64,000 nt of DNA from an uncultured Pseudomonadota bacterium (GCA_963749075.1 CAVVLJ010000021.1:32001-96000); one strand, 5' to 3'. Shown: positions 36,548 to 52,969, counted from the first letter of the stretch. Notes: a model not told the origin generated them from the sequence alone. Program-made: numbers and translations.

Positions 36548-38104
36548 CTAGTCTCGTCGGCGCCCGCGGAGAAATGCACGACCGAGGAGTCCGAGCTCGA
36601 CGGCGCCAGTCGCAAGCACGAGCGCGCCATAGAGCGCCGCCCCGCCGCCGACGAGTGCCGCGAGTGCCGCGACCTTAGCCGCGAGCCCGGCGGCAAAGGC
36701 GCCGTGGAGCGCGCGTGCGCCGAGCACGAGGGCGGCCGCCATCGCAGCACTGGCAAGGACGGCGCGCGGCACGCGCCGGTGGAAGCCGGCGTCGAGGGCG
36801 AGATGCGCATGGCGCCTCAGCCAATAGGCGAGCGTCGCCGCATTGACCCAGGCGGCGGCTGAGCTCGCAAGCGCGATCCCGGTCGGCCCCAGCGGCCGCA
36901 CGAGCGCCAGGCTGAGGGCGATGTTGGCCGCCACCGCGATGACCGCGGCACGCACGGGGGTCGCCGTGTCCTCGCGGGCGAAGAAGGCGGGCGCCAGGGC
37001 CTTGACGATGACATAGGCGGGCAGGCCCAGGGCATAGGCCGCGAGTGCCGCCGCCGTCGTCCGCGTGGCAGCTGCGCCGAAGGCGCCGTGCTGGAAGAGC
37101 ACCGTGGTGATCGGCGCCGCGATCGCGGCGAGCGCCGCTGCTGCGGGCAGCGTGAGCACGAGGGCGAGCTCGAGCGCGCGGTTCTGGCTCACGGCCGCCC
37201 CCGCCGCATCGCCCGTGCGCAGCTTGCGCGCGAGCTCGGGCAAAAGGACCGTGCCGATCGCCGTGCCGATGACGCCGAGCGGCAGCTGATAGAGCCGGTC
37301 GGCGTAATAGAGGCTGGCGACCGCACCCGTGGGCAGGAGCGAGGCGATCACGGTGCCGATCACGATGTTGATCTGGATGACGCCGGCACCGAAGGCTCCG
37401 GGCAGCATGAGGCGGAGTAGGCGGCGCACCGCGGGCGTGAGCCGCGGGCGCGGCAGGCGCGGCAGGAGGCCGTGGCGCCCTGCCGACCAGGCGAGCCAGA
37501 GGAACTGGCCGATGCCCGCCACCATCACCGCCCACGCGAGGGCATGGCCGGGCTCGGCACCCCAGCTGCGCGGCAGGAGGAGGGCTGAGATGAGCGTGAG
37601 GTTTAGGAGGATGGGCGAGACCGCCGCGGCCGCGAAGCGGAAGCGGCTGTTGAGCATGCCGCCCAAGAGTGCTACCAGCGCCATGCAGAGGAGATAGGGG
37701 AAGGTGATGCGCGTGAGCTCGACCGCGAGCGCGTATTTCGCAGGGTTCGCCACGAAGCCGGGCGCCAGCGCCGCCATGAGCCAGGGCATGGCGGCGAGGG
37801 CGACCAGGGTGAAAAGCACGAGAGAGGCGAGAAGGACGGCCAGCACCTCGCCGGCAAAGGCGATGGCCCGCACCTCGCCGCCCTCGGCGTCGGCGCGGGT
37901 GAAGAGCGGCACGAAGGCGACGCTGAAGGCGCCCTCGGCCACCAGGTTGCGGAAGAGGTTGGGGAAGCGGAAGGCGACCACGAAGGCGTCGGCTACGGGA
38001 CCAGCACCCAGGGCTGCCGCGATCATCACGTCGCGCACGAAGCCGAGCACGCGGCTCGCCATGGTGTAGCCGCCGACCACGGCGCTCGAGCGCAGGAGGG
38101 CCAT
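36548..38104 (-). CDS. murJ: Lipid II flippase MurJ
   Basis: SRVLGFVRD, AFRFPNLFR..AEGAF, YADRLYQLP, FFAREDT.TP. Confidence 0.96.
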   Translation of the reverse strand: MALLRSSAVVGGYTMASRVLGFVRDVMIAAALGAGPVADAFVVAFRFPNLFRNLVAEGAFSVAFVPLFTRADAEGGEVRAIAFAGEVLAVLLASLVLFTLVALAAMPWLMAALAPGFVANPAKYALAVELTRITFPYLLCMALVALLGGMLNSRFRFAAAAVSPILLNLTLISALLLPRSWGAEPGHALAWAVMVAGIGQFLWLAWSAGRHGLLPRLPRPRLTPAVRRLLRLMLPGAFGAGVIQINIVIGTVIASLLPTGAVASLYYADRLYQLPLGVIGTAIGTVLLPELARKLRTGDAAGAAVSQNRALELALVLTLPAAAALAAIAAPITTVLFQHGAFGAAATRTTAAALAAYALGLPAYVIVKALAPAFFAREDTATPVRAAVIAVAANIALSLALVRPLGPTGIALASSAAAWVNAATLAYWLRRHAHLALDAGFHRRVPRAVLASAAMAAALVLGARALHGAFAAGLAAKVAALAALVGGGAALYGALVLATGAVELGLLGRAFLRGRRRD

Positions 38105-38106
38105 GG

Positions 38107-38547
38107 TCAGAGTGCCGCCGGCACTTCGGAAAGGGCTACGAGCCGCTCGCTAAATCGGCCGCGACCCGCGCGCGCTTTGGCGACGAGGCGCGCATCGGCG
38201 GTGACGAGAGGCAGCGCCATGGCTTCGGCCACCGCGAGATAGATACCGTCGTAAGCCGGATGATCGAGCTCGATGGCGATCGCCGCGGCCGCCGCGAGAT
38301 ACGGCCTCGTCGCCACGAGCTCGACCTCCGCACCCTCGAGCGCCCGCGCCGCCAGATCGGCCTCTTCCGCCGTCAGCTCGCGCAGCATGACTTTCTTCCA
38401 GAGAATGTTCGCGCACTCGGAAGAGAGCAGGTCCGGTGCCATGAGCCGCCGCTCGAGAAGCAACGCCGCCACGGCGCTCCCCGGCTCGTCGACCACCCAT
38501 TTGATCGCGACGCTGGCATCGACGAGCACGCGCTCGGGCAGCTTCAC
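38107..38547 (-). CDS. vapC: PIN-domain toxin (VapC)
   Basis: VDASVAIKW, ECANIL, AYDGIYLAVAE, LVTAD. Confidence 0.9.
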   Translation of the reverse strand: MKLPERVLVDASVAIKWVVDEPGSAVAALLLERRLMAPDLLSSECANILWKKVMLRELTAEEADLAARALEGAEVELVATRPYLAAAAAIAIELDHPAYDGIYLAVAEAMALPLVTADARLVAKARAGRGRFSERLVALSEVPAAL

Positions 38548-38780
38548 CGCTCGTCCCGCCCCTCGCGAAGGAGGACCTCCGCGGGCGTATGGCGCCGATT
38601 GGCCGTCATCGCGCGCAGCCTGGCGGCGATCTCCTTGAAGGACTGCCGCGGCTCCCCGCCGAGCGCCTGGCGCAGAATCTCGCGATGCTCCGCCTCCGCC
38701 GAGCGCTGATTGCGCGCCGCGCGCAGCTTGAGCTTGGCCACCAGCTCGTCATCCACGTTGCGCACGATCAAAGATGCCAT
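38544..38780 (-). CDS. FitA-like ribbon-helix-helix antitoxin
   Basis: MASLIVRNVDDEL...LKLRAARNQRSAEAEHREIL; 4-bp overlap with vapC. Confidence 0.88.
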   Translation of the reverse strand: MASLIVRNVDDELVAKLKLRAARNQRSAEAEHREILRQALGGEPRQSFKEIAARLRAMTANRRHTPAEVLLREGRDER

Positions 38781-38803
38781 GGAGTCCCAGCCGAGGTGTA
38801 TCG

Positions 38804-38842
38804 TTGATATCTTTGATATCAATTTTTCGGAAACGATGTCAA
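38804..38842 (-). promoter_or_regulatory. Sigma70-like promoter overlapped by a palindromic operator for the RHH/VapC pair
   Basis: TTGACA at 38842-38837, TATCAA 18 bp downstream; perfect inverted repeat TTGATATC-TTT-GATATCAA at 38804-38822. Confidence 0.65.
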
Positions 38843-38882
38843 GCCACCCAGGCCCTCATCCGCGCGGTTTCAGGGGCGGCAA

Positions 38883-39007
38883 GCCCGAGTGATGCTCATG
38901 GATCTTTCTCAGCTTCTGCTCGTGCTCGATCTTGAGGCCGAAGACGTCTTTCACATAGAACACGTCGACGGCGCGCTCGCCGTAGGTCGAGATCTTGACC
39001 GAGGAGA
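38883..39007 (-). pseudogene. Diverged duplicate of the glnD 3' region (second ACT domain fragment)
   Basis: 125-bp direct repeat of 40322-40446 with 11 differences counted by hand; translates SSVKISTYGERAVDVFYVKDVFGLKIEHEQKLRKIHEH. Confidence 0.93.
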
Positions 39008-39041
39008 GTGGCACAGTACGTGTCTCTCGCGGCCCTATCAT

Positions 39042-39602
39042 TCAGTCGGCACGAATGATGCCATGGCTCTCGGCCCAGGCGCGCCACTCGATCAGCTCAT
39101 GACCGGTCGGCTCCAGCTTCGCATCCTGGGTGTGATTGTCGGTAAAGATCATCAGATTTTCGCACTCCCAACGGGCGGAAGGAGCGATAAGACCGTCCAA
39201 GCCCAGCCAAGCCAGGGTGCTGCCGATCTCCTGAGTCCGCGCATAGTCGCGTTCGCCGTAACGACTCATGTCGACATCCAATGCCTCCAGATCGGCACGG
39301 GCCAAGTGAAGCGTCTTGGAGGTGGTCACCGCAAGCCGCGTCAGCTTGAGTTCCCGTGGCCCGGGCATCGGCGTCTGATCGGCCAAAAATGATACCGCCT
39401 CTGCCATGGCTCCGTCCCGCTCCAGACTGGTGTAGAGCACGTTTGTGCCAGGGTCGCCATTCTGGGGCCGCGCCCAGCGGCCGCCGTAAAGCGAGGGTGC
39501 TGTCGGATCGGCGCTCGTGCGGGTAGTGCGAAAGACCTCTCCGGAAAATGCCTCCGTCGCAAACGCACCAAGACGATCCGCAAGGTCCGGGTCATAGCTC
39601 AT
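39042..39602 (-). CDS. RES-domain toxin
   Basis: VFR, GGRW, LYTSLE..GAMAE, YARTQEIG, GLIAPSARW...NLMIF; lower GC than flanks. Confidence 0.85.
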   Translation of the reverse strand: MSYDPDLADRLGAFATEAFSGEVFRTTRTSADPTAPSLYGGRWARPQNGDPGTNVLYTSLERDGAMAEAVSFLADQTPMPGPRELKLTRLAVTTSKTLHLARADLEALDVDMSRYGERDYARTQEIGSTLAWLGLDGLIAPSARWECENLMIFTDNHTQDAKLEPTGHELIEWRAWAESHGIIRAD

Positions 39603-39614
39603 CCCCGAGGACCG

Positions 39615-39950
39615 TCAGATGTAGACACCATCCCGCAGTTGGTTAACCAATCGACGCACCTCGTCCATTTTGCCGTCCTGAATCAATTCGGCCGGTGAAT
39701 GCCCCCGAAGATGCTTCTGAGGCGAGAACAGCCATTGGCGTGCTTCCTTCGGCTCGTAAAAATCGCAGAGCTGATCGACGATGAATTCGAGCTCGAGCAG
39801 TGCCTTTTCGGTCGAGGAGTGCGGGTAGGCCTGGCCCTTGTTCCAACGCGATACTTGCTCCGGCCGCGTGCCCAGGAGGATTGCCACCTCGGTCTGCCTG
39901 ATCCCTTTGTTGCGCAGCGATTCTAGCTTTCGTGCGACCGGGCTGGTCAT
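39615..39950 (-). CDS. Xre/MbcA/ParS-type antitoxin (HTH plus DUF2384-like C-terminus)
   Basis: IRQTEVAILLGTRPEQVSRW HTH; EARQWLFSPQKHL.GHSPAELI; directly upstream of the RES gene. Confidence 0.85.
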   Translation of the reverse strand: MTSPVARKLESLRNKGIRQTEVAILLGTRPEQVSRWNKGQAYPHSSTEKALLELEFIVDQLCDFYEPKEARQWLFSPQKHLRGHSPAELIQDGKMDEVRRLVNQLRDGVYI

Positions 39951-40258
39951 GGTCTGCCGTTCCTCTTGTGCTGCAGTTTGAAAATTTCCGCTCATTCACT
40001 GGGCCCGTTCCCCGCGGGTCCGCATGGCGGCGGAATCGCAGCGCTATGCTATCGTTCATGCGGACCTGGCTCGCCCCACGATATAAACCTGCCTTTTGAA
40101 TTGCGCAATATAATGCGCTTTGTATTGCCTTTTCCTGGGATTTTCGCCAGGGCCAAGCCGCTGTCAGGCAGTGTTCGTCGCTCGAGACGGCTCACGATAG
40201 CGGAATCTCGCGAGGGGGAAGGGACGCAGGACCGTTTCGTTCCAGGGTGCGCTCTTAG

Positions 40259-43033
40259 CTAACCTGCCTCGGCGGCGGTGCGCCGCGCCGTCTCCGGCTC
40301 CCCTCCCGCCCCGGCCAGCACGCCCGAGAGATGCTCGTGGATGCGCCTCAGCTTCTGCTCGTGCTCGACCTTGAGGCCGAAGACGTCCTTCACGTAGAAC
40401 ACGTCGACGACGCGCTCGCCGTAGGTCGAGATCTTGGCCGAGGAGATCTGCAGGTTGAGCTCGGTGAGCGCCCTCGTGAGCGCATAGAGGAGGCCGGGGC
40501 GGTCGCGGCCGTTGACCTCGATGACCGTGTGGGTGGCGCTCGCCCTGTTGTCGATGAGGACGCGCGGCGGCACCTGGAAGACGTCGAGCCGGCTCGGCAG
40601 GCCGCGGCCCACCGCGGCGACCTCCTCGGGCCACAGGCGGCCGGCGAGCGAGCGCTCGATGGTGGCGGAGAGCCGGGCGAGCTTCTGCGGCCGGTCGAAG
40701 CTGTTGCCGGCGGTGTCTTGCACCGAGAAGCTGTCGAGCGCCATGCCGGTCGCCAGCGTGAAGATGCGGGCGTCCACGATGTTGCCGCCGGCGACCGCGA
40801 TGGCGCCGGCGATCTTGGCGAAGAGCCCGGCGTGATCCGCCGTATAGACGGTGAGCTCGGTGACGGCGCGGTAGGCGTCGATGCGCCAGTCGAGGGCGAG
40901 CGGCGCGTTCTCGGCCTCGGCCTGGCGGATGATGCGCGCGTGGCGTGCCAGCGTATCGATGTCGAGCGCCAGCCAATAGGCGGCCTGTCCGCGCGCCACA
41001 TGGGCCTGCCAGTCCGCCTCGCTCCACTCGGCAAGCGCTGCGCGCAGCTCCGCGAGCACGCCCCTGACGCGCGCCGCGTCGCCGTGGGTGGCGAGCGCCC
41101 CGGTGAGCACCTCCTCGGTCTTGAAATAGAGGTCGCGCAGGAGTGCCGCCTTCCAGTTGTTGAACACCTTGGGCCCGGTCGCCTTCATGTCGACGACGGT
41201 GAGCACGAGGAGGAGGCGCAGGCGCTCCGGCGACTGCACCAGGCCCGCGAAGTCGGTGATCGTCTTGCGGTCGCCGATGTCGCGCTTCTGCGCCGTGTGG
41301 CTCATGGCAAGGTGATAGCGCACCAGCCAGGCGACGGTGTCGGTCTCCTCGGGTGTCAAGCCCAAGCGCGGGCAGAGCTTGCGCGCCACCTCGGCGCCGA
41401 GCGTCGAATGGTCGCCGCCGCGTCCCTTGGCGATGTCGTGCAGCAGGAGTGCGAGATAGAGCACACGGCGGGAGAGGAGCTGATGCACGAGCTCGCTCGA
41501 CAGCGGATGCTCGGCCTTGAGCTTGCCCTGCTCGACGGCGTGGAGGAGGCCGATCGCCCGGATGGTGTGCTCGTCGACCGTGTAGACATGGTACATGTCG
41601 TACTGCATCTGGGCGACGACGCGGCCGAAGTCGGTGATGAAGCGGCCGAACACGCCGGCCTCGTTGAGCCGGCGGAGCGTCGTTTCCGGGTCGTTCGGCG
41701 AGGTCAGCATCTCGAGGAAGAGGCGGTTGGCCTCCGGGTCCTCGCGCAAGCGGGCGTCGACGAGGCGGAGCGCGCGGCGCACGCCGCGCAGCGCCTTGGG
41801 ATGGATGTCGAGGCCGTGCTGCTGGGCCACGTGGAAGAGCTTGAGGAGCTTGACCGGATCCTTGCGGAAGAGCGCCTCGTCGGCGACGGTGAGACGCTCG
41901 CCCTCGAGCTGGAAGCCCTCGATGTCGCGGCGGCGGCGGAGGAGGGCTGCGAGGCTGAAGCGCGGCGGGCGCTTGTGCTCGGCCTCGAGGGCCGCGCAGA
42001 AGATGCGCGTGAGATCGCCCACGTCCTTGGCCACCAGGTAATAGTGCTTCATCAGCCGCTCGACGCGCTGGCTGCCGGCATGGTCGGTGTAGCCCATGTG
42101 CCGGGCGATCTCCGGCTGCACGTCGAAGGTGAGGCGCTCCTCGGCGCGGCCGGTGAGCCAATGCAGCGTGCAGCGCAGTGTCAAGAGGAAGTCCTGCGCC
42201 TTGGCGAAGGCCTGGTACTCCTCCTCGGTGAGGAAGCCGAGCGGCACCAGCTCGCGCGCGTCGTCGATGCGGTAGAGGTACTTGGCGATCCAGAAGAGCG
42301 TGTGGAGGTCGCGCAGGCCCCCCTTGCCCTCCTTGATGTTGGGCTCGACCACGTAGCGCGAATCGCCCATGCGCTGATGGCGCTGATCGCGCTCGGCGAG
42401 CTTGGCGGCGGCGAAGGCGAGCCCGGTGCCGGCGATCACCTCGCGGGCGAAGCGCCGCTTGAACTCGAGATAGAGCGCCTCCTCGCCCGAGACGTAGCGG
42501 GACTCGAGAAGGGCGGTGCGGATGGTGATGTCGGCCTTGGCCTGGCGGATGCACTCGTCGATCGAGCGCGTGGCGTGGCCGACCTTGAGGCCCAAGTCCC
42601 AGAGCAGGTAGAGCATCCACTCGACCACCTGCTCGGTATAGGGCGTCGATTTGTAGGGCAGGATGAAGAGGAGATCGATGTCGGAGAAGGGTGCGAGCTC
42701 GCCGCGGCCATAGCCGCCGACCGCCACCACCGCCAGGCGCTCGCCCACCGTCGGGTTGGCAAGCGGGAAGACCCTGGTGGTGGTGAACTCGTGGAGCGTG
42801 CGCACGAGCTGGTCCATGAGGGCGGCCAGGCTGCGCACCGTCTCGCTGCCCGAGAGCTTCGCCTCGAAGCGCTTGCGCACCTGGCGCCGGCCGTCCTCGA
42901 GCGCCCGGCGGAAAGAGGCGAGCACCTCGGGGCGCAGCGCCTCCCAAGAGGTCCCGCCCGCGGCAAGTGCGGCGAGCTCCTCCGCGAGGGTGCGCCGGCT
43001 CACGGTCTCGCGCGGATTGGCAATGGCGGTCAT
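40259..43033 (-). CDS. glnD: [Protein-PII] uridylyltransferase
   Basis: AVGGYGRGELAPFSDIDLL, EPNIKEGKGGLRD, YTVDEH, LLHDIAKG, two ACT domains. Confidence 0.97.
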   Translation of the reverse strand: MTAIANPRETVSRRTLAEELAALAAGGTSWEALRPEVLASFRRALEDGRRQVRKRFEAKLSGSETVRSLAALMDQLVRTLHEFTTTRVFPLANPTVGERLAVVAVGGYGRGELAPFSDIDLLFILPYKSTPYTEQVVEWMLYLLWDLGLKVGHATRSIDECIRQAKADITIRTALLESRYVSGEEALYLEFKRRFAREVIAGTGLAFAAAKLAERDQRHQRMGDSRYVVEPNIKEGKGGLRDLHTLFWIAKYLYRIDDARELVPLGFLTEEEYQAFAKAQDFLLTLRCTLHWLTGRAEERLTFDVQPEIARHMGYTDHAGSQRVERLMKHYYLVAKDVGDLTRIFCAALEAEHKRPPRFSLAALLRRRRDIEGFQLEGERLTVADEALFRKDPVKLLKLFHVAQQHGLDIHPKALRGVRRALRLVDARLREDPEANRLFLEMLTSPNDPETTLRRLNEAGVFGRFITDFGRVVAQMQYDMYHVYTVDEHTIRAIGLLHAVEQGKLKAEHPLSSELVHQLLSRRVLYLALLLHDIAKGRGGDHSTLGAEVARKLCPRLGLTPEETDTVAWLVRYHLAMSHTAQKRDIGDRKTITDFAGLVQSPERLRLLLVLTVVDMKATGPKVFNNWKAALLRDLYFKTEEVLTGALATHGDAARVRGVLAELRAALAEWSEADWQAHVARGQAAYWLALDIDTLARHARIIRQAEAENAPLALDWRIDAYRAVTELTVYTADHAGLFAKIAGAIAVAGGNIVDARIFTLATGMALDSFSVQDTAGNSFDRPQKLARLSATIERSLAGRLWPEEVAAVGRGLPSRLDVFQVPPRVLIDNRASATHTVIEVNGRDRPGLLYALTRALTELNLQISSAKISTYGERVVDVFYVKDVFGLKVEHEQKLRRIHEHLSGVLAGAGGEPETARRTAAEAG

Positions 43034-43206
43034 GCGCTCGCCCGGCTCTCCCGGCTCTCTCCCGTATTGTCGCCGTCCAGCGAGATATAATATCGTATTT
43101 GAGGAAGGTTTGCCGTCGCCGCGAGCATGACGCCCGTCGCGGCCGTGCCTGCTGCGGCACTTGGTGCGGGATGCGGCCGGCCGTCCCAAGGCAAGGACGC
43201 TCCGCC

Positions 43207-44073
43207 ATGCGCCTCACCGTCATCGTTGCCTTCGCCGCAGGCGGCGTGCTTGCCCTCGCGTCCGCGCCGGGTGCCGCGCGCGCGAACGCGACGACGGACG
43301 CCCTGAGCGCCGCCGAGGCGTCCTTCGGGCGGCACGATTATGCCGCTGCCCTCAAGCTGCTGCAGCCTTTGGCCGATGCGGGCAATGCGGCGGCAGAGAA
43401 CGGGCTCGGCGTGCTCTACGCCGACGGCGAGGGCGTGGCCCAGAGCTATGCCGAGGCCGCGCGCTGGTATCGCATGGCCGCCGACCAGGGCTATGCGGTG
43501 GCCCAGAGCAACCTCGGCTTCCTCTACGCCAAGGGCGAGGGCGTCCGGCAGGACGATGCGCAGGCCGTGCGCTGGTACCGCCTGGCCGCCGAGCAGGGCT
43601 ATGCGCCGGCGCAGAACAACCTCGGTATCCACTACGAGGCCGGGCGGGGCATCGCCAAGAGCGACGCTGAGGCCGTGGCCTGGTACCTCAGGGCCGCCGC
43701 CCAGGGCTATGCCGATGCGGAGTCTAATCTCGGCAGCATGTATGCCGACGGCGCGGGCGTTCCGCGCGACTATGCGCAGGCGCTGCGCTGGTATCGCAAG
43801 GCGGCCGTGCAAGGCAATGCGGGCGGGCAATACAATCTCGGGGTGCTCTACGCCAACGGCGAGGGCGGGCCCAAGGACGAGGTCCAGGCTTTCATGTGGT
43901 TCAGCCTCGCCGCCGCCGCGGGCAACGCGCTCGCAGCCAAGGATCGCGACCGCCTGGCGCAGTCCATGCCGGCGGATGCGCTCGCCAAGGCGCGGCAGCA
44001 GATCGCCGCCTGGCATGCCACGCCGGAGGTCGACGAGGATGCGGGCAAGCCGCCCGCCCGCGCGGCACCCTGA
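43207..44073 (+). CDS. Exported Sel1-like repeat protein
   Basis: Signal peptide plus five 36-aa repeats of AQxNLGxxYxxGxGVxxDxxxAxxWYxxAAxQG. Confidence 0.92.
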   Translation: MRLTVIVAFAAGGVLALASAPGAARANATTDALSAAEASFGRHDYAAALKLLQPLADAGNAAAENGLGVLYADGEGVAQSYAEAARWYRMAADQGYAVAQSNLGFLYAKGEGVRQDDAQAVRWYRLAAEQGYAPAQNNLGIHYEAGRGIAKSDAEAVAWYLRAAAQGYADAESNLGSMYADGAGVPRDYAQALRWYRKAAVQGNAGGQYNLGVLYANGEGGPKDEVQAFMWFSLAAAAGNALAAKDRDRLAQSMPADALAKARQQIAAWHATPEVDEDAGKPPARAAP

Positions 44074-44168
44074 CCGCCTCGGCTGAGGCGCCCGCCGGGG
44101 TGACGAACCGAGGTGGCGCCCACTATAATGCCGGCAATTGCCGCGATTAAAGGAGGCGGAGATCGGCC

Positions 44169-44633
44169 ATGAGATTCTTCTTGGCAGCGGCGGCGCTGCT
44201 CGTCGCGAGTGCGGCCGCGGCACGGGCCAACGATCTCGCCTGCCTGAGCACGACCTTCAACCTGCTGTCGCCGAACGACAAGGTGTGCGTGAGCGAATTC
44301 GGCGACCCCAGGGTGCCCGGGGTCGTCTGCTACATCTCGCAAGCGCGCAAGGGCGGCTGGGGCCAGCCGCTCGGCCTCAACGAGGACCCCTCGAATTTCT
44401 CGCTCGCCTGCCGCCAGGTCGGCCCCATCGCCGTCGACATAGCTAAGCTGCCCAGGCGCGAGGAGGCGTTCAGCGAGAAGACGAGCATCTTCTTCAAGGC
44501 GACGCGCATCTACCGGCTGCCCGACGCGAAGCACAATTCGCTCGTCTATCTCGCCATCAGCACCAAGATCGTCAACGGCTCGCCGGCCAACGCGATCAGC
44601 ACCGTGCCGATCATGCCGTGGGCGCAGCACTGA
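44169..44633 (+). CDS. creA: CreA family periplasmic protein
   Basis: DPRVPGVVCYISQA.KGG, EDPSNFSLACRQVGP, GSPANAISTVP. Confidence 0.88.
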   Translation: MRFFLAAAALLVASAAAARANDLACLSTTFNLLSPNDKVCVSEFGDPRVPGVVCYISQARKGGWGQPLGLNEDPSNFSLACRQVGPIAVDIAKLPRREEAFSEKTSIFFKATRIYRLPDAKHNSLVYLAISTKIVNGSPANAISTVPIMPWAQH

Positions 44634-44686
44634 CGGCCCGCGCCTCGCTGGCGCGTTGCCGCACGCCGGCGCATAATGGCCGCATC

Positions 44687-45529
44687 ATGTCCATGCCCTT
44701 GTCGCACGACGCCAGGGTCCCCGCTCGCTGGAGGCGCGTCCGCCGAGACTGGAGCGCTCTCCTCCGTTGGCTCCGCCGCTGGCGCAAGCATGCGCGGCGG
44801 GCGCGGCGGAAGCTCGACGCGGCGCCGCCGGCGGCGCGAATCGCCATCATGGCGACGGCGGTCCTGGCGCTCTTCGCGGCCGCTGACCTCGTCTATCAGG
44901 TGGCAAGCAAGCCGACCGAGATGCTCTTTCCCCTGAGCGGCGCGCTCGACAAGGCGCCGGCCGAAACCTGGCGGCAATACGCCCCGCTCTTCCGCGAGTA
45001 TTCCACGGCGGCCATCACGCCCGAGCTGCTGGCGGCACTCGCCCAGGTCGAAAGTGCCGGCAATCCGGTCGCGCGCACCTATTGGCGCTGGCGCCTCGCC
45101 TGGAATCCCTTGGCGATCTTCGAGCCCGCCTCGAGCGCCGTCGGCTTATATCAGATGACCGATGCGGCCTTTGCCGAGGCGCGGCGCTATTGCATCCGCC
45201 GCCACGCCGTCGTCGAGGACGGCTGCTGGCCGGGCGACCTCTATTTCCGCGTGCTCCCGAGCCACGCCGTCGAGCTCACGGCGGCCTATCTCGACCGCGG
45301 CGTCGCGGCCGTTCTCGCGCGCCGGCCCCGCGCCAAGGCGACTGCACGGCAGAAGCAGGACCTCGCCGCCATCATCCATCTCTGCGGCGCCGGTCCGGCC
45401 ACGGCCTTCGCGCGCCGCGGCTTCCATTTGACCCCAGGCGAGCGCTGCGGCGATCACGACGCCGCGGCCTATCTCGCCCGCGTCGACGCCGTCAAGCGGC
45501 AGTTCCAGCGTCTCGCCGCCGAGCGGTAG
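44687..45529 (+). CDS. Membrane-anchored lytic transglycosylase (SLT-like)
   Basis: Basic N-terminus plus TM segment, LAQVESAGNP, SAVGLYQMT; start uncertain. Confidence 0.75.
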   Translation: MSMPLSHDARVPARWRRVRRDWSALLRWLRRWRKHARRARRKLDAAPPAARIAIMATAVLALFAAADLVYQVASKPTEMLFPLSGALDKAPAETWRQYAPLFREYSTAAITPELLAALAQVESAGNPVARTYWRWRLAWNPLAIFEPASSAVGLYQMTDAAFAEARRYCIRRHAVVEDGCWPGDLYFRVLPSHAVELTAAYLDRGVAAVLARRPRAKATARQKQDLAAIIHLCGAGPATAFARRGFHLTPGERCGDHDAAAYLARVDAVKRQFQRLAAER

Positions 45530-45544
45530 AGGGCGCGCGAGCGC

Positions 45545-45739
45545 TCACCCCTTCCCCACCATCCCCTTCAGCCGATAGAGAAGCCCGAGCGCCTCCTTGG
45601 GCGTGAGCTCGTCGGGGTGCACCTCGCCGAGCGCCTCCGCGCCCGCCTCAAGGGTGACGAGGATCTCCTCGGCGCGGGCGACGATGGCCGCCGGCAGCCC
45701 GCCGAGCTTCGCCGCGTGGATGCCGCAGGAGCGGTCCGC
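45545..45739 (-). pseudogene. Diverged duplicate of the mutS 3' end with an internal 102-bp in-frame deletion
   Basis: [64 protein letters not shown] matches mutS 49997-50293. Confidence 0.93.
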
Positions 45740-45826
45740 CCTGGCGGCGCGGCGCATGTTTCATCCCATTCGGCTTTTATCGGATAATGTTGGCGCCCGG
45801 TCTCGTTTGCGGAAGGGAGCCCCGAC

Positions 45827-46471
45827 ATGCGGTTCGGCGTGGTCATCTACGAAGGGGTCGAGCCGATCGACCTCGCGACCTTCGGCGTGCTCTCGATGGC
45901 GCGGCGCATCCGGCCGGACATCGAGATCTGCACGATCGCCCCGGAGCGCGGGCCCGTGGCGCTGGTGAATGGCCTGCGCGTCATCGCCGAGCACGATTTC
46001 CGCTCGGCGCCGCCCCTCGACGCGGTCATCGTGACCGGCGGCGCGAGCTGGCGCGCTCAGGCAGCGCGTCCGGACACGCTCGAGTTCCTCAGCCGGCGCT
46101 CGGCCGATGCGCTTCTCGTCTCGGTCTGCACGGGTGCCATGATCCTCGCAGCGAGCGGCGTGCTTGACGGCAAGGCCGCGACGACGAAGCGCGCGGTCGT
46201 GCCGCCCGAGGTGCCGCCGCTCAACGTCATGCGCGAGGCGCATCCGCGCATCGAGGTGCACGAGGCGAGCCTGGTCGACGAGGATCGCGTCATCACCGGC
46301 GGCGGGGTCACGCTCTGCATCGATACGGTGCTCCATCTCCTGATGCGGCTCTGCGGCCGCGAGGTGGCGCTGGAGACCGCCCGCATCCTCGAGTATCAAC
46401 GCGCCTGGTCGGCAAATCTCGCGCAGTTCCCGCCGCTCGTGAGGGTTGCGCAGGCTAACCCCCGGGCTTGA
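45827..46471 (+). CDS. DJ-1/PfpI family protein
   Basis: YEGVEPID, IVTGG, SVCTGA nucleophile elbow, GVLDGKAATT, ITGGGV. Confidence 0.88.
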   Translation: MRFGVVIYEGVEPIDLATFGVLSMARRIRPDIEICTIAPERGPVALVNGLRVIAEHDFRSAPPLDAVIVTGGASWRAQAARPDTLEFLSRRSADALLVSVCTGAMILAASGVLDGKAATTKRAVVPPEVPPLNVMREAHPRIEVHEASLVDEDRVITGGGVTLCIDTVLHLLMRLCGREVALETARILEYQRAWSANLAQFPPLVRVAQANPRA

Positions 46472-46608
46472 CCCAGGGAAATCGCATGCCAATTCCTGGC
46501 GAAGCGCCGGCGGTTGAGCTTCCTTGACTGCGCGGTGCGGGCTGCTACTGTGCCGGCCGGACGAGGGCGCGAGCCCGCGGCAATCACAAGACATTCAGGG
46601 AGGAGAAG

Positions 46609-47187
46609 ATGGCAGGCGCAATCTCGATTCACCCCTCGGTCGATCGCGGCATCAAGCCGGCGGCCAAGGATTTCGCGGGCGGCACCCTCTCGTGCAAATG
46701 CGCGACGAATCCCGTCAAGGTGACAGTCGCCTCGCAGTCCGCGCATAACCACGCCTGCGGCTGCACCAAATGCTGGAAGCCCGCAGGCGCCCTCTTCTCG
46801 GTCGTGGCCGTGGTGCCGCGGGACAAGCTCACCGTCAGCGCCAACGCCGACAAGCTCAAGGTGGTCGATCCCTCAGCCACGATCCAGCGGCATGCCTGCA
46901 AGGTGTGCGGCGTGCACATGTACGGCCGCATCGAGAACGCGAAGCACCCGCTCTACGGGCTCGATTTCATCCATACCGAGCTCTCGCCCGAGTCCGGCTG
47001 GTCGCCGCCGGAGTTCGCCGCCTTCGTCTCCTCGATCATCGAGAGCGGGGCCGATCCCAAGGAGATGGGCGCCGTGCGCGCGCGGCTCAAGGAGCTCGGC
47101 CTCGAGCCCTACGACTGCCTCTCGCCACCGCTCATGGATTTCCTCGCGACCGCGGCCGCCAAGGCCGCGGGCACGCTCCGCGCCTGA
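46609..47187 (+). CDS. gfa: S-(hydroxymethyl)glutathione synthase
   Basis: [56 protein letters not shown]. Confidence 0.94.
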
Positions 47188-47212
47188 GTGCCGCCGGATC
47201 GGGAGAAGAGCC

Positions 47213-48323
47213 ATGGAACGTCCGCGCAGCCGTCGCCTGGGGGGCGGGCAAGCCGCTCGCCGTCGAGACCGTTCAACTCGACGGTCCGCGCGCCGGAGAG
47301 GTGCTGGTCGAGATCAAGGCGACCGGCATTTGCCACACCGACAAATACACGCTCTCGGGCGCCGACCCGGAGGGGCTCTTCCCCGCCATCCTCGGCCATG
47401 AGGGGGCCGGCATCGTGGTCGACGTGGGCGCCGGCGTCGCGAGCGTCAAGAAGGGCGACCACGTCATCCCGCTCTACACGCCCGAATGCCGCCAGTGCAA
47501 ATCCTGCCTCTCGCGCAAGACCAACCTCTGCACCGCGATCCGTGCGACGCAGGGGAAGGGGTTGATGCCGGACGGCACCAGCCGCTTCTCCTTCGGCGGC
47601 AAGCCGCTCCTCCATTACATGGGCTGCTCGACCTTCTCGAACTTCACCGTGCTGCCGGAGATCGCCTTGGCCAAGGTGCGCGAGGACGCGCCCTTCGACA
47701 AGATCTGCTACATCGGCTGCGGCGTCACGACCGGCATCGGCGCCGTCATCTATACGGCGAAGGTGGAGCCCGGCGCCAACGTCGTGGTCTTCGGGCTCGG
47801 CGGCATCGGCCTCAACGTGATCCAGGGGGCGCGGCTCGCCGGCGCCGACATGATCATCGGCGTCGACGTCAATCCCAAGCGCGAGGCGATGGCGCGCAAG
47901 TTCGGCATGACGCATTTCGTCAATCCCAAGGAGACGGCGGGCGATCTCGTGGCCCATCTCTTCGAGCTCACCAAGGGCGGCGCCGATTACAGCTTCGAGT
48001 GCGTCGGCAATACCGAGCTCATGCGCCAGGCGCTCGAATGCTGCCACCGCGGCTGGGGAGTGAGCACCATCATCGGCGTGGCGGCGGCGGGGAAGGAGAT
48101 CTCGACGCGGCCCTTCCAGCTCGTCACCGGCCGCGTCTGGAAGGGCACCGCCTTCGGCGGCGCCCGCGGCCGCACCGACGTGCCGAAGATCGTCGACTGG
48201 TACATGGAGGGCAAGGTCAACATCGACGACCTCATCACCCACACCATGCCGCTCGAGAGGATCAACGACGCGTTCGAGCTCATGACCAAGGGCGAATCGA
48301 TCAGGAGCGTCGTGGTGTATTGA
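47213..48323 (+). CDS. frmA: S-(hydroxymethyl)glutathione dehydrogenase (class III ADH), +1 frameshift just after the ATG
   Basis: GICHTD, LGHEGAG, CRQCKSC...NLC, RPFQLVTGR; ATG at 47213 is one base out of frame with VRAAVAW. Confidence 0.9.
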
Positions 48324-48361
48324 GGGGCGAGCGGCGCGGGGCGGGCGGCGCTACGGATGAA

Positions 48362-48645
48362 ATGAACAGGTTCAGCAAAGAGCTGATCCAAAGCCTCTCG
48401 GAGGCGGTCGCGCACGCCGAGGGCAAGAAAGCCGCCGCGCGCGTACATGTGATCGAAGGCCCGGAAGTGCGGGCGATCCGCAAGCGCCTGTGCATGCCCA
48501 GCAAGCCTTCGCGCGCGCCTATCGCATCCCGCTCGCGACGCTGAAGAATTGGGAGCAGGGCCGCCGCCAGTCCGACGCACGCGCCGCCGCCTATCTCAAG
48601 GTCATCGCCAAGCGCCCGCGGGAGACGCGCGAGGCGTTGAGTTAA
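48362..48645 (+). pseudogene. Frameshifted HigA/MqsA-like HTH antitoxin
   Basis: MNRFSKELIQSLSEAVAHAEG..VRAIRKRL, then in another frame QQAFARAYRIPLATLKNWEQGRRQ..AAAYLKVIA; length 284 nt, one base short. Confidence 0.82.
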
Positions 48646-48855
48646 AGGGCGGCGGTTGGTGGCAACGCGTCCCCGATGTCGCCATGTGCAGCTATGGGCA
48701 ATGACGCCATTCGCTGAACCCAGTTCACGGATGGTCAGCCTTGATGCAATGAGAATGGCATCCTTACTGGCAACGGGCGAAAGTGGCGGAAAAAGCGATT
48801 GAAGCTTGGCCCGCCACAGGGAGCGACGTTTGACACCCTACCTGGACGCGAAGGA

Positions 48856-49845
48856 TTATAGCCGTAACGGTTGAACGTTGCGTGGTTGCACAAGCTCATT
48901 GGCGCCAAAACAGATTAGATCATCGCGCTGATTCGTCGGGAGCAATACGTTCGGCACATAAAAGGACTTGGGGTCACAGTCTTTGATTTCGATTGAAAAA
49001 AGCTGATTGGCTAGAGCGGCAAGCGAGCCTGCCGCGTGAAAGAGATGAAACGGCCCGAAGCGGACGCTAAACAGCACTATGTTGGCGGCAACGGCCTGGA
49101 GGCAATTCCAAAGTGTGGCCTCGGAGAAATGGGCTCTGCGATCGTGCTTTGTCTTATTGTAAGCTTCATACCATGGCAGCGTCTTCGTTGGGCTCGTTAG
49201 GTTCCACCCCAGAAAAGGGCGAATTGGCGGAATGTCAGTGTATCTTGGGAGGCTGATCTCGAACTCCGCAAGAAACAAAGGGCTTCCGAGCCCCACGTAA
49301 TTTTTGGTGGTGAACTGGCCGCTTGCAGGGGTGTGGACATCTGCTATTCGGAGATAATGCTTCCAAATATTTTCGACTTCCGTACAAGCGAGAATAAGAA
49401 GTTCTCGTACCTTGTGGCTGTGCGTGTTCATTGCACCGGAAGCAGGCTCGACGAAGTAAAGTAGCTCATCGAGCCGCTGCACTAGCAGCAGCAAAGCTTG
49501 CTCGGCTAACCGAAGTTCGACATTGGTAGCCCCCAAGCCTTGCAAAATCTCTTCAGTAAAATAGAGGCCAGGTCTCCACACGCCTTCTATCGTGCAGCCT
49601 ACGTCGTTCTCAGTCTCTTCGACAGCTTGTGCCCCAAAAGTCCGTTCGACCCAGTCCCGTAGTGATCCCGATTTCTTCTCCGTGACCGTCAGCCCGGGCG
49701 AGATTACCCATAGTCCTCGGTCTTTTCCATAATGGTGGACAAAGTGCGTATGCGTCTCATACGCGACGCCCCGTGGCTCCTTCTCATGAAGGGGCACCCA
49801 TCTAGGAATGGTGTGCTTAGTGTTACGGTAGACTAGCGCGCGCAC
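48856..49845 (-). CDS. Low-GC hypothetical protein with HEPN-like C-terminal domain
   Basis: 329-aa ORF in a clearly AT-richer segment lacking shadow ORFs; ELLILACTEVE and WYEAYNKTKHDR...ATL.N motifs. Confidence 0.75.
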   Translation of the reverse strand: MRALVYRNTKHTIPRWVPLHEKEPRGVAYETHTHFVHHYGKDRGLWVISPGLTVTEKKSGSLRDWVERTFGAQAVEETENDVGCTIEGVWRPGLYFTEEILQGLGATNVELRLAEQALLLLVQRLDELLYFVEPASGAMNTHSHKVRELLILACTEVENIWKHYLRIADVHTPASGQFTTKNYVGLGSPLFLAEFEISLPRYTDIPPIRPFLGWNLTSPTKTLPWYEAYNKTKHDRRAHFSEATLWNCLQAVAANIVLFSVRFGPFHLFHAAGSLAALANQLFSIEIKDCDPKSFYVPNVLLPTNQRDDLICFGANELVQPRNVQPLRL

Positions 49846-49996
49846 GACTCCGCTCCAGGGCGGTTGGATGGACGGGATATAGAATGCTTGCCTTTATGGC
49901 GCTCGTCACCAATCCAAGGATTAACCCACCCTGGGATTCTGTGGGATTTGCAATTCCCTCCAAGCCCTCCCGCCGCTCGATCGACCAAACGCGCCC

Positions 49997-52687
49997 TCAC
50001 CCCTTCTCCCCCATCCCCTTCAAGCGATAGAGGAGCTCGAGCGCCTCTTTCGGCGTGAGCTCGTCCGGATGCACCTCGGCGAGCGCCTCCTCGGCGGGCG
50101 AGGGCCCGCGCGGGAGGCCCCCTTGCGGGCGCGCGGCGGCGGCGCTGAAGAGGGGGAGGTCGTCGGCGAGGCGGGCGAGCGCGCTTGCCTCCTCGCCTGA
50201 CTCGAGGGTGGCGAGAATCTCCTCGGCGCGGGCGATGACGGCAGCCGGCAGCCCCGCGAGCTTCGCCACGTGGATGCCGTAGGAGCGGTCGGCGGCACCG
50301 GGTGCGACCTCGTGGAGGAAGACCACGTCGCCCTGCCATTCCTTGACGCGCATGGTGTAGCAGGCAAGCGCGGCGAGCTTGGCGGCGAGTGCTGTGAGCT
50401 CGTGGTAGTGCGTGGCAAAAAGGGCGCGGCAGCGGTTCACCTCGTGGAGGTGCTCGAGCGTCGCCCAGGCGATCGAGAGGCCGTCGAAGGTCGCCGTCCC
50501 CCGCCCGATCTCGTCGAGGATGACGAGCGCGCGCTCGCCCGCCTGGTTGAGGATCGCCGCGGTCTCGACCATCTCGACCATGAAGGTCGAGCGCCCGCGC
50601 GCGAGGTCGTCGGCGGCACCCACGCGGCTGAAGAGGCGGTCGACGACGCCGATGTGCGCGCGCTCGGCCGGCACGTAAGCGCCCATTTGCGCCAAGATCG
50701 CAATGAGCGCGTTCTGGCGGAGGAAGGTGCTCTTCCCCGCCATGTTGGGACCGGTCACGAGCCAGAGGCGGCGCTCGGGCGGGAGCGCGCAGTCGTTCGC
50801 CACGAAGGTGCTGTCCTGACGCTCTTGAAGTGCTGCCTCGACGACCGGATGGCGGCCGCCCGCGATCTCGAAGGCGAGGCTCGCGTCGACGAGCGGCCGG
50901 GCGTAGCGCCGCTCGACCGCGAGCGCCGCGAGTGCCGCTGCCACGTCGAGGGCGGCGAGTGCCGCCGCGGTCGCGGCTATGGCCTCGGCGCGGGCGAGGA
51001 CGGTGCTGGCGAGCTCGTCGAAGAGCGAGAGCTCGACGGCGAGCGCCTTGTCGGCGGCGCGCGCGATCTTCTCCTCGAGGCCGGCGAGCTCGGCCGTGGT
51101 GAAGCGCACGGCGCTCGCCATGCTCTGGCGGTGGATGAAGCGCCCGCCGGCGCCCGAGGGCAGCTTGTCGGCGTGCGCCGCCGTGACCTCGACGTAATAG
51201 CCGAGCACGTTGTTGTGGCGGATCTTGAGCGAGGCGACGCCCGTCTCGCCGCGGTAACGCGCCTCGAGGGCCGCCACCAGGCGCCGGCTCTCGTCGCGCA
51301 GCAGGCGCTCCTCGTCGAGTGCCGGATTGTGCCCCGCCGCGATGAAGCCGCCGTCGCGCGCGAGAAGCGGCAGATCGGGCGCCAGCGCGCGGGCGAGAAG
51401 GTCCACGAGCGCCTCGTGGCCGCCGAGCCTGGTGCTGGCCTCCGCGATCCCTGAGGGCGGCTCGACGAGCCCGGGTGCGGAAAGTGCCAGCTCGAGCTCC
51501 GCCGCCTCGCGCAAGCCGTCCCTGAGACCCGCGAGGTCGCGCGGGCCGCCGCGCCCGAGGGCCAAGCGCGAGAGGGCGCGCTCGAGATCGGGGCAGCGCT
51601 TGAGGATGCGGCGCGCGTCCTCGCGGAGGCGCTCGAGGCCGGCGAAGAACTCCACCATGTCGAGGCGTGCGGCGATCGCCGCGGGGTCGGTCAAGGGGGC
51701 GGCCAAGCGCGCGGCGAGGAGGCGGGCGCCGCCGGCGGTGACCGTGCGGTCGATGACCGAGAGGAGGCTGCCGCGGCGCTCGCCTGAGAGCGTCTCGGCG
51801 AGCTCGAGGTTGCGCCGCGTCGCCGGGTCGATCTCCAAGACCGCCCCGGCGCGCACCTGCTGCAGCCGCCCGAGACGCGGCAGCTTGCCCTTCTGGGTGA
51901 GCTCGACATAGTCGAGGAGGGCGCCGGCCGCAGCAAGCTCGGGGCGGGAGAAGCTGCCGAAGCCGTCGAGCACGGTAACGCGGTAATAGGCCTCGAGCCG
52001 GCGCCGCCCGGAATCGCTGTCGAAGCGCGCCTGAGGCTGCGGCGTGAGTTCGGCCCGCCAATCGGCGAGAAGGGCCGCGAGCGCCGGGCGCGCCAAGAGG
52101 CGGTCGGAGAGGACGAGCTCGCCCGGCTCGAGGCGCGCGAGCGTGCTCGCGAGTGCGGGCTCGTCGAGCGCCTGGACCTGGAAATCGCCGGTCGAGAGGT
52201 CGAGCCAGGCGAGTGCCAGGGCGCCCGCCGCTTCGGCCAGGGCCGCCAGGTAATTGTGCCGCCGCGCGTCGAGGAGCGTGTCCTCGGTCAGCGTCCCCGG
52301 CGTCACGATGCGGACCACGCCGCGGCGCACCACCGCCTTGCCGCCGCGCCGCTTGGCCTCGGCCGGGTCCTCCATCTGCTCGCACACGGCGACGCGGAAG
52401 CCCTGGCGGATGAGGCGCGAGAGATAGGCATCTGCCGCATGCACCGGCACGCCGCAGAGGGGCACGTCCTCGCCCTCGTGGCGGCCGCGGCGGGTGAGCG
52501 TGATGTCGAGCGCCTTGGATGCTGCCACCGCGTCCTCGAAGAACATCTCGTAGAAGTCGCCCATGCGGTAGAAGAGAAGGCAGTCCGGATGGGCGCGCTT
52601 GACCTCGAGATATTGCGCCATCATGGGCGTGGCGGGCGCCAATGCGGCAGCCTCGCGCGCGGGCGCGGGCGGAGGGCTCTCGCTCAA
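49997..52687 (-). CDS. mutS: DNA mismatch repair protein MutS
   Basis: [50 protein letters not shown]; start uncertain. Confidence 0.97.
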
Positions 52688-52969
52688 GGGCTCGGCAGGG
52701 AACGGCAAGGCTCGCTCGGCTCGCGCGCGACGGTTGCGGGAAGTGGCCAAGGCCGGCGGCACCTTAGCATGGCGCGCGAGCGCCGGGCTACGGCCGCCGC
52801 GAGCGCGCGCCGGAGCGCCGTGCAAGGCGGCCCCGCATTCTTCGTCCTTAACAGCCGTGGCGGCGAGGCGCTATGCTCGGCGAAGCGCGGGGCGGCACGG
52901 CCGCCCCTCGGCCGAGCACCGGCTCTGCGCCCCGGAAAACTCCGCACAAGACGAACGACGGAGATATTT

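Follow-up and report, generated by a model that had tools for sequence, protein, structure and literature searches.

Much accessory DNA lies in hot spots between core genes, without visible mobile-element genes, and its route of entry is mostly inferred. Insertion with long target duplication of restriction-modification systems was reportedly described by Nobusato and colleagues in 2000, and homology-facilitated illegitimate recombination (HFIR) is said to have been described by de Vries and Wackernagel and by Prudhomme and colleagues in 2002, and by Meier and Wackernagel in 2003. C-terminal displacement in Rhs, contact-dependent inhibition (CDI), and type VI secretion system (T6SS) genes was, by report, set out by Jackson and colleagues in 2009. 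Tyrosine recombinases that target tRNA genes and gene ends yield a characteristic order of gene, cargo, and copy of the gene's 3' end. The same order, with no recombinase domain in the open reading frames (ORFs) scanned, is described here at the housekeeping genes glnD and mutS of an uncultured Pseudomonadota bacterium of soil origin (GCA_963749075.1, genome G000), where each gene is followed by an islet of cargo and then by a diverged remnant of its own 3' end. Both genes lie in a window of 64,000 nt (G000:C21:32001-96000), which is the whole stretch analyzed and from whose first nucleotide positions are counted below. The genome comprises 5.49 Mb in 23 contigs with ~68% GC, and is estimated to be 96% complete with 5.15% contamination.

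One of the closest described classes is that of long target duplications, which comprises integrase-free inserts of restriction-modification systems, shorter than 20 kb and bounded by direct repeats of more than 30 bp (Furuta, Abe & Kobayashi, 2010, PMC2853133). The present islets share with it small inserts without mobility genes and direct repeats far longer than transposon target duplications, but their repeats are only 87-96% identical, differ mostly at synonymous positions, and mostly end at a stop or start codon, and their cargo is mostly toxin-antitoxin, detoxification, or regulatory rather than restriction-modification. HFIR has also been presented as a source of small variable segments (PMC2884548). 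With HFIR the islets would have in common one homologous anchor, one illegitimate joint, and the recombinase-free entry of non-homologous DNA, and HFIR would account both for the cutting of a cargo gene at a joint and for the end of homology at the point where the sequences of donor and recipient part; a remnant, however, requires a circular intermediate or a second event on the other flank. Displaced orphan 3' ends are also found in arrays of T6SS effectors, for which successive insertions by a conserved anchor and HFIR have been proposed (Kirchberger et al., 2017, PMC5361080). In such C-terminal displacement (Rhs, CDI, T6SS) an intact gene is likewise followed by orphaned 3' ends, but the new end there is a different toxin with its immunity gene, whereas here the ends are housekeeping alleles and the cargo is unrelated to the gene. 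In integrase islands, cis-mobilizable elements, and tycheposons, a replacement end keeps the gene intact and a partial copy marks the far border (10.1101/2020.12.28.424599); here, in contrast, no recombinase domain was found in the scanned ORFs, the targets are many, the ends are not conserved, and the cargo is very small. Copies of housekeeping gene ends that are diverged, mostly at synonymous sites, and that bracket islets of toxin-antitoxin or detoxification genes are not described in any report that our literature searches returned.

The minus strand of the window carries, in this order, mutS (49997-52825; Pfam MutS I-V), glnD (40259-43189; Pfam GlnD_UR_UTase, HD, and ACT), and murJ, the conserved neighbor downstream of glnD (36548-38104; Pfam MurJ, 1.1e-110). 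Repeat search and pairwise alignment identified the glnD repeat pair at 38874-39007 and 40313-40446 (134 nt, 90% identity, 1.4 kb apart). The former copy, the remnant, lies on the minus strand within a 61-aa ORF (38856-39041) and translates to the GlnD C-terminus (84% over 43 aa, tblastn). Between glnD and the remnant, the same strand encodes a toxin-antitoxin pair, formed by an Xre/MbcA/ParS-type antitoxin (39615-39995; Pfam Xre_MbcA_ParS_C, 2.1e-09) and a RES-domain toxin (39042-39602; Pfam RES, 3e-18), and the ATG of the remnant ORF directly abuts the RES stop codon. Past the remnant, also on the minus strand, follow a FitA-like ribbon-helix-helix (RHH) antitoxin (38544-38822; Pfam FitA-like_RHH, 9.1e-17), a VapC-type PIN toxin (38107-38547; Pfam PIN, 1.9e-10), and then murJ. 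The last 54 nt of intact glnD, its tail, are not common to the remnant; the two copies run into different C-terminal tails, each with its own stop codon. The 3' end of intact glnD is 90-94% identical to those of congeners and the start of its tail is similar to the tail of congener G004, and the branch of the remnant is the longer one and is biased from GC to AT. Only 2 nt separate the stop codon of vapC from the start codon of murJ (38104-38109), the upstream spacer of 67-474 nt found in congeners being gone, so that murJ translation would have to begin from a site inside the end of the toxin gene.

The mutS repeat is formed by two collinear blocks, 45538-45641 vs 49990-50093 (104 nt, 87%, spacing 4452) and 45633-45739 vs 50187-50293 (107 nt, 87%, spacing 4554), the spacings of which differ by 102 nt, equal to an in-frame gap in the remnant. 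In the intact gene, the stretch that is missing from the remnant has a copy of a 9-nt direct repeat on either side, as in slippage. The remnant (45538-45739, minus strand; 70-aa ORF at 45545-45757, Pfam MutS_V end 0.0018) shows 53% amino acid identity to MutS over 98 aa including the 34-codon gap (tblastn). The repeated part of the intact copy (49990-50293) extends 7 nt beyond the stop codon, which the remnant retains; both this remnant and that of glnD remain ORFs. Four cargo genes separate mutS from its remnant: a minus-strand gene for a 329-aa protein of no known family, which abuts mutS and is the lowest in GC (48856-49845; GC 0.52-0.56), and three plus-strand genes encoding class III alcohol dehydrogenase (ADH), i.e., S-(hydroxymethyl)glutathione dehydrogenase (47202-48323; NCBIfam TIGR02818, 1.6e-184, above cut-off), the S-(hydroxymethyl)glutathione synthase Gfa (46609-47187; TIGR02820, 3.3e-99, above cut-off), and a DJ-1/PfpI family protein (45827-46471; Pfam DJ-1_PfpI, 3.3e-11). 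The 329-aa protein had no match in Pfam, NCBIfam, or PADLOC, and in the Atlas it falls into "hypothetical protein" clusters of Pseudomonadota only. The start codon of the ADH gene is not fixed, and a second class III ADH copy (G000 C4:358074-358974, 82% DNA identity) means that the islet copy duplicates an existing function. A 277-aa minus-strand ORF (45761-46594) was rejected as a wrong-frame reading over the plus-strand DJ-1/PfpI gene, which is what adjoins the remnant instead. Past the remnant, three further plus-strand genes encode an SLT-domain transglycosylase (44618-45529; Pfam SLT, 5e-05), CreA (44169-44633; Pfam CreA, 4e-45), and a Sel1-repeat protein (42967-44073; Pfam Sel1, 4.6e-46, 5 stretches). 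Compared with five congeners and read by eye with outgroups, the two mutS copies are each other's nearest relatives and share derived states, so the second allele would come from a close, unsampled lineage.

Most of the architecture given in a preliminary description of this DNA is thereby confirmed: both repeat pairs exist on the minus strand, the copies lie downstream of the intact genes, and the accessory genes reported past each remnant (RHH-vapC; SLT, creA, Sel1) are present. Chance can be set aside as the source of the repeats, which are among only 33 low-copy direct-repeat pairs genome-wide and whose remnants translate to the C-termini of the parent proteins. The absence of integrases and transposases also holds, as no such domain was detected in the scanned ORFs of the islets and the nearest of nine Phage_integrase hits is ~389 kb away; nor are the islets bracketed by terminal inverted repeats, the listed inverted repeats flanking neither of them. 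The remark that the lowest-GC gene abuts the intact gene is correct for mutS (GC 0.52-0.56 across 48600-49800) and only roughly so for glnD, where the Xre gene has a GC of 0.57-0.585 and a second minimum of 0.565 occurs at the RES end and the remnant. In contrast, the idea that islets replace the 3' ends of their genes is not borne out, as the intact glnD end, tail included, resembles those of congeners and the data do not single out a native copy.

Physical support for the joints comes from Logan contigs of soil runs, a separate assembly in which two runs of one study match the stretch, with a run possibly from the same sample as the genome. In run X1, a contig of 1719 nt covers 38318-40037 with 2 differences and bridges vapC/RHH, the remnant, and RES-Xre, while a contig of 368 nt covers 40039-40406 with 0 differences and bridges the cargo, the glnD stop codon, and the repeat. 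A mis-assembly, which the preliminary description had foreseen as grounds for refutation, is thus largely excluded at glnD. At mutS, the contigs listed extend over 48375-50006 and 45368-45608, and the joint 45739/45740 is spanned by none of them, which counts neither for nor against it. Congener-type glnD sequence co-occurs in the same soil runs, in which the variant letters are congener-like and not remnant-like. Two further joints seen in the runs (38178>43117 and 45873>50775) match over just 21-23 letters per side, too few to be relied upon, and were discounted.

The order to which the bacterium belongs is represented by 11 species genomes, and the 10 others were compared, the closest of them being different species (a genus-level comparison). 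murJ, glnD, and mutS were matched in all 10 and are adjacent wherever they lie on one contig; whole-length MurJ identity is 75-82% in same-family relatives, 58% in one G008 fragment, and 55-60% in three class-level relatives. By BLAST boundaries, the glnD-murJ gap measures 67-474 nt in four congeners vs 2154 nt here, and the mutS-glnD gap 272-2113 nt vs 6807 nt. tblastn searches of 14 relatives' loci returned, for each locus, a single match to the glnD end and a single match to the mutS end, both within the gene proper, and no match for RES, Xre, VapC, RHH, Sel1, CreA, SLT, GFA, ADH, or the 329-aa protein (DJ-1 was outside the query set); the relatives carry a single copy of the glnD, mutS, and ubiD ends. 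Since cargo and remnants are absent from these loci, both islets and the blocks beyond the remnants were gained in this lineage, and the earlier suggestion that the islets are insertions holds against all 10 sampled relatives. Some of the same genes occur elsewhere in the relatives: creA has DNA matches of 85-88% on other contigs of G004, G005, and G009, SLT has matches of 74-78% in G003, G005, and G007, and ADH also has a DNA match elsewhere in their genomes. No RES-Xre DNA was found in the 10 other genomes of the order. In G003, the mutS-glnD gap holds a different 370-aa ORF that, by eye, may resemble zinc alcohol dehydrogenases, and in G008 two contigs (C122 and C129) carry murJ-glnD segments (76-79% and 71-79% identity), which could represent a duplication, a second strain, or contamination (4%).

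The glnD-murJ gap is a recurrent landing site, because an unrelated RES-Xre pair occupies it in three marine contigs (L116, L117, and L118, about 6435-7613) that have an empty-site relative. There the pair lies on the opposite strand, has 36% and 31% identity to that of the window, begins ~9 nt past the glnD stop codon, and replaces 11-17 nt without any target duplication. The relative, L107, is near-identical to these contigs and differs in its glnD stop codon (TAA vs TGA). Among 80 metagenome loci with a glnD end, murJ follows glnD in 27, and the enlarged gaps of L053, L055, L100, L126, and L127 contain no repeats.

Recurrence was examined by a plus-strand self-BLAST of the whole genome, which gave 8888 hits and 256 nearby pairs. 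Filtering for direct repeats of low copy number, 60-450 nt long, 80-98% identical, and 0.4-30 kb apart left 33 pairs, which were classified via Pfam on surrounding ORFs, PADLOC, and inspection of the junctions (21 of the 33 were judged from ORF context only, as paralogues, internal repeats, or unclear). Eight of the 33 pairs have the order of gene, cargo, and copy of the gene's 3' end; together with two 5'-end cases and one gene-junction case, they amount to 11 loci on four contigs. Apart from glnD (repeat 134 nt, 90%; cargo RES-Xre) and mutS (about 200 nt, 87%; cargo the low-GC gene, ADH, gfa, and DJ-1), the 3'-end cases comprise xdh, the molybdenum subunit gene of a xanthine-dehydrogenase-type enzyme (135 nt, 90%; HigB-like toxin and helix-turn-helix (HTH) antitoxin), secA (119 nt, 90%; 592 nt of low-GC DNA, with IS1595 and IS3 transposases past the remnant), a copA-type P-ATPase gene (242 nt, 94.6%; 11.7 kb encoding LTXXQ, response regulators, CheR, a hybrid kinase, Ysc84, and MlaC), ubiD (335 nt, 96%; Vsr, an uncharacterized 391-aa protein, and a C5-methyltransferase), a HalD-like gene (77 nt, 92%; an HTH protein), and a YmdB-like gene (160 nt, 94%; a split PDC-S01 candidate defense ATPase). 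Protein identity between remnant and resident gene end is 84-97% in seven of the eight pairs. In the 5' type, an amidohydrolase gene has a copy of its first 220 nt 1.1 kb upstream, the two being separated by the gene of an LTXXQ protein, and an RDD-family gene has a copy of its start 5.8 kb upstream, the interval encoding an EAL response regulator and a hybrid kinase. In the junction type, an MmeI-like type IIG enzyme is inserted between the genes of an aromatic amino acid lyase and of an ornithine cyclodeaminase, and an 89-nt repeat spans their overlapping stop and start codons. At L050:2355-2385 (G000 C2), the MmeI-like ORF reads into the 27 nt that remain of the lyase end and terminates at the stop codon there, which overlaps the ornithine cyclodeaminase start. 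One more candidate, a 77-nt, 92% repeat of a resolvase 3' end 1.2 kb downstream, next to a phage-type integrase (L029, G000 C16:1199000-1206000), was dropped as an ordinary mobile context.

The 11 cargos vary between 0.48 and 11.7 kb, some having only 480-760 nt, and all 11 have a GC content of 0.55-0.685 against about 0.68 for the genome. No end motif is shared among them, no recombinase domain was found in their scanned ORFs, and none of the nine Phage_integrase (PF00589) hits in the genome lies inside a repeat-bounded segment (serine recombinases were outside the genome-wide scan); one tyrosine recombinase lies 7.3 kb past the secA remnant. Each gene has a single remnant, with no second one within 60 kb on either side. 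Restriction-modification genes are cargo in the ubiD islet, where the M gene is truncated, and in the MmeI-like insert; the glnD and mutS islets are without R and M genes. In the case of the ubiD islet, ubiD and pmbA are adjacent in eight of the 10 relatives (gaps 147-1366 nt) with no listed match in the ubiD cargo, the cargo begins 3 nt past the stop codon of the intact gene, and the remnant is followed by sequence like that downstream of ubiD in relatives. The joint between cargo and remnant cuts the C5-methyltransferase gene, whose product matches the profiles only from positions 187-217 of 368-412 onward, starting with the residue at which the ORF emerges from the remnant. This joint is therefore probably an illegitimate one and not an att site. 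A 44-nt element resembling a repetitive extragenic palindromic (REP) sequence or a miniature inverted-repeat transposable element (MITE), present in many copies (89-98%) in the genome and in relatives, has one copy between pmbA and the ubiD remnant (L033:2865-2908, G000 C4:47364-47407).

The repeats end in a non-random position. Relative to the stop codon, the edge of homology lies at 0 in xdh and ubiD, at +2 in the YmdB-like gene, at +7 in mutS, and at +27 in the copA-type gene; the HalD-like pair retains the stop at the same codon position, and in the secA pair the two final residues and the stop are preserved although 5 of 9 nucleotides differ. In total, at least five of the eight pairs of the 3' type have their homology end at the stop codon, glnD alone differing in having two tails. 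The amidohydrolase repeat starts no more than about 7 nt from the earliest possible start codon. With a random staggered cut of 77-335 nt, the edge could fall at any distance past the stop codon up to the length of the repeat, and the stop-codon edges are therefore left unexplained.

The two copies also differ in a way that points to selection. Ratios of nonsynonymous to synonymous divergence (dN/dS, Nei-Gojobori) are 0.04 for the YmdB-like, 0.06 for the HalD-like, 0.14 for the ubiD, and 0.26 for the copA-type pair, followed by 0.28 for mutS, 0.45 for glnD, 0.52 for secA, and 0.79 for xdh. Pooled over the eight pairs, the corresponding ratio of proportions (pN/pS) is 0.28, against ~0.5 expected for in situ duplication with a neutral remnant and a constrained gene; 41 of 89 differences are nonsynonymous, against an expected fraction of 0.61 (binomial p = 0.004). 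The four lowest pairs alone give p = 1.4e-4, for a group chosen after the values had been seen. The longest identical runs between copies are 17-83 nt, and outgroup polarization of xdh assigns 10 changes to the remnant and 5 to the intact copy. In our reading, the copies would originally have been alleles of two lineages that were close to each other but separate (dS 0.08-0.3), and the unneeded copy would have decayed since, more so in the older pairs.

We see a slightly better than even chance that the remnants are recombination scars left by DNA of a diverged relative, acquired by a homology-anchored and recombinase-free process. What follows on the donor, on the pathway of recombination, and on the sequence of the steps is inference. 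DNA of a diverged relative (synonymous divergence about 0.08-0.3) would recombine with the chromosome, the conserved end of a housekeeping gene serving as the homologous anchor and the other joint being formed by illegitimate joining. The product would be an intact gene, non-homologous cargo at or a few bases past its stop codon, and an allelic copy of the last 77-335 nt that is unneeded and decaying. Two topologies both fit the data. In the first, a circle carrying a gene-end fragment and cargo would integrate by one RecA crossover of the Campbell type; this topology would cover the 3', 5', and junction cases, and the structure could leave again via its repeats. In the second, two one-sided events of the HFIR type would follow each other: cargo would first enter anchored in the upstream gene and leave no remnant, as in L116-L118, and later a fragment from a cargo-free relative would pair with the downstream gene, its unpaired gene-end flap being joined inside the cargo. 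The second topology would explain why the remnants are short, why the methyltransferase is truncated, and why, past both remnants of the window, there are further accessory genes whose GC is native-like. The cargo would be newest under the first topology, and the remnant and the DNA past it would be newer under the second. Under either, addictive cargo (toxin-antitoxin and restriction-modification systems) would be enriched because its loss is penalized.

Several observations weigh against such recombination with a relative's DNA. The start of the cargo at the stop codon would need a first transfer from a more distant donor without homology past the stop, so that the difficulty is not removed but shifted to an earlier event. 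HFIR in its classical form deletes DNA of the recipient and is not known to duplicate it. No Ku homologue was found in the genome (96% complete), which removes the obvious route to circularize linear DNA; a ComEC homologue is present, as in 10 of 14 control genomes, and says little. The four pairs with the highest ratios (glnD, mutS, xdh, and secA) fit the expectation of 0.5 (p = 0.45), and for glnD and mutS the codon data alone do not reject in situ duplication. The mutS remnant has a long branch with radical changes in conserved MutS motifs, as in plain decay; polarization of ubiD, done by eye against the outgroups G004 and G005, the two that could be used, is close to balanced, many sites being ambiguous; and sliding-window identity against four congeners and three family members revealed no clear mosaic in murJ, glnD, or mutS. 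Neither a donor nor a conspecific empty site was found. Two protein relatives of RES-Xre (77% and 61%) in species genomes have no glnD in view (0/2, both at contig ends) and no flanking repeats, and none of the 80 metagenome loci with a glnD end (60-88% amino acid identity) has a second copy of it; the architecture is thus not general at the glnD locus and may be a lineage trait.

The chief competing explanation, insertion with long target duplication, is in our estimate improbable for the set as a whole. It supposes that a staggered break duplicated 77-335 nt of the genome's own sequence, so that the copies were identical at first and the unselected one has decayed by 4-13%. The islets do have the size (0.48-11.7 kb) and the lack of mobility genes of this class, two of the cargos are restriction-modification systems (the ubiD islet and the MmeI-like insert), and the radical motif changes and slippage-type deletion of the mutS remnant, together with the pooled codon counts of glnD, mutS, xdh, and secA, are what decay in situ would produce. 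The MmeI-like junction case, with 89 nt over overlapping stop and start codons, looks like a true target duplication, and there this explanation may be right. Duplication of own sequence is, however, difficult to reconcile with the low pN/pS over the eight pairs, with the almost purely synonymous differences of the YmdB-like, HalD-like, and ubiD pairs, with the downstream repeat edges at stop codons, with the separate tails and stops of the glnD copies, and with the secA copies, which preserve their last residues through dense nucleotide change. Moreover, in the examples given in PMC2853133, 43-47 of 46-47 nt are identical in the repeats, vs 87-96% identity here. A second possibility, which we hold to be equally doubtful, goes further than recombination scars and regards the islets as recombinase-free mobile cassettes, in which addictive or useful genes travel with a gene-end homology arm, leave one chromosome as a circle formed by RecA recombination of the flanking repeats, and enter a related one by a single RecA crossover at the same gene, with a hybrid pair of diverged repeats left by each round. 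If it were true, the long target duplications around restriction-modification systems would be products of allelic recombination and not duplications.

Somewhat less probable still are decayed site-specific integrative elements, or cis-mobilizable ones that depend on an integrase in trans; each islet would have come in by recombination of attP with an attB in the gene 3' end, supplied a replacement end, and lost its integrase since. Their integration produces just this order of gene, cargo, and 3'-end copy, target-derived direct repeats do flank the inserts, the logic of a replacement end would explain homology that stops at the stop codon, and the genome encodes nine tyrosine recombinases, including the one beyond the secA remnant. 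Tycheposons (10.1101/2020.12.28.424599) stack with partial tRNA copies between them and the newest next to the tRNA gene. At the present loci there is no such tandem accretion, each gene having one remnant within 60 kb on either side, and no integrase was found in any repeat-bounded segment among the scanned ORFs. The at least eight target genes, to which the 5'-end and junction sites are added, make a single trans-acting enzyme implausible, and cargos as small as 480-760 nt, the lack of common end motifs, and the joint that truncates a cargo gene add to this. An assembly artefact, in which two strains' versions of a locus were laid in tandem in a metagenome-assembled genome, is very improbable: 23 contigs, 5.15% estimated contamination, and congener-type glnD in the same runs would allow it, but Logan contigs (0-2 differences) bridge both joints of the glnD islet, the overlap between cargo end and remnant start that a false tandem join needs does not exist, the same pattern occurs at 11 loci on four contigs, and the variant letters of the runs are congener-like.

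With respect to the broader proposals of the preliminary description, the genome self-alignment that it had suggested as a check revealed six more 3'-end cases. A homology-driven route, one of the two that it had offered, fits better than a site-specific one, given the at least eight target genes, the absence of common end motifs, and the joint through a cargo gene, while the trans-acting recombinase that it had considered finds no support. The limitation to 3' ends and to defense or detoxification cargo proved too narrow, as two cases concern 5' ends and one a gene junction, and some cargos encode regulators and sensor kinases. Under one of the two fitting topologies, the remnant and the DNA past it would be the later arrival, in contrast to its rule that the newest cassette is the one next to the gene.

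If the remnants are indeed scars of recombination with a relative's DNA, one genome would carry 11 of them, each retaining a second allele of the anchor sequence, and this allele would record both a close but distinct donor lineage and the gene end as the pairing site. The result would be a countable signature, namely a diverged, mostly synonymous copy of a gene end that lies 0.5-12 kb downstream and ends at the stop codon, which would measure the rate of homology-anchored capture of toxin-antitoxin, restriction, and detoxification genes. The long target duplications reported at restriction-modification systems since 2000 would also gain an explanation that can be put to the test.

Some minor features of the window and the genome are as follows. 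The Sel1 gene is divergent from glnD, and 4-5 tandem 108-nt units (68-73% identity) at 43372-43911 encode its Sel1 repeats; the start of its ORF, which overlaps the glnD start, is uncertain. A repeat of ~200 nt with more than 20 genome copies at 80-90% is represented at L030:5100-5314 (G000 C17:150099-150313). At L030:4958-5046 (G000 C17:149957-150045), next to recJ, an 87-nt stretch, probably a tRNA gene, shows 95% conservation between genera.

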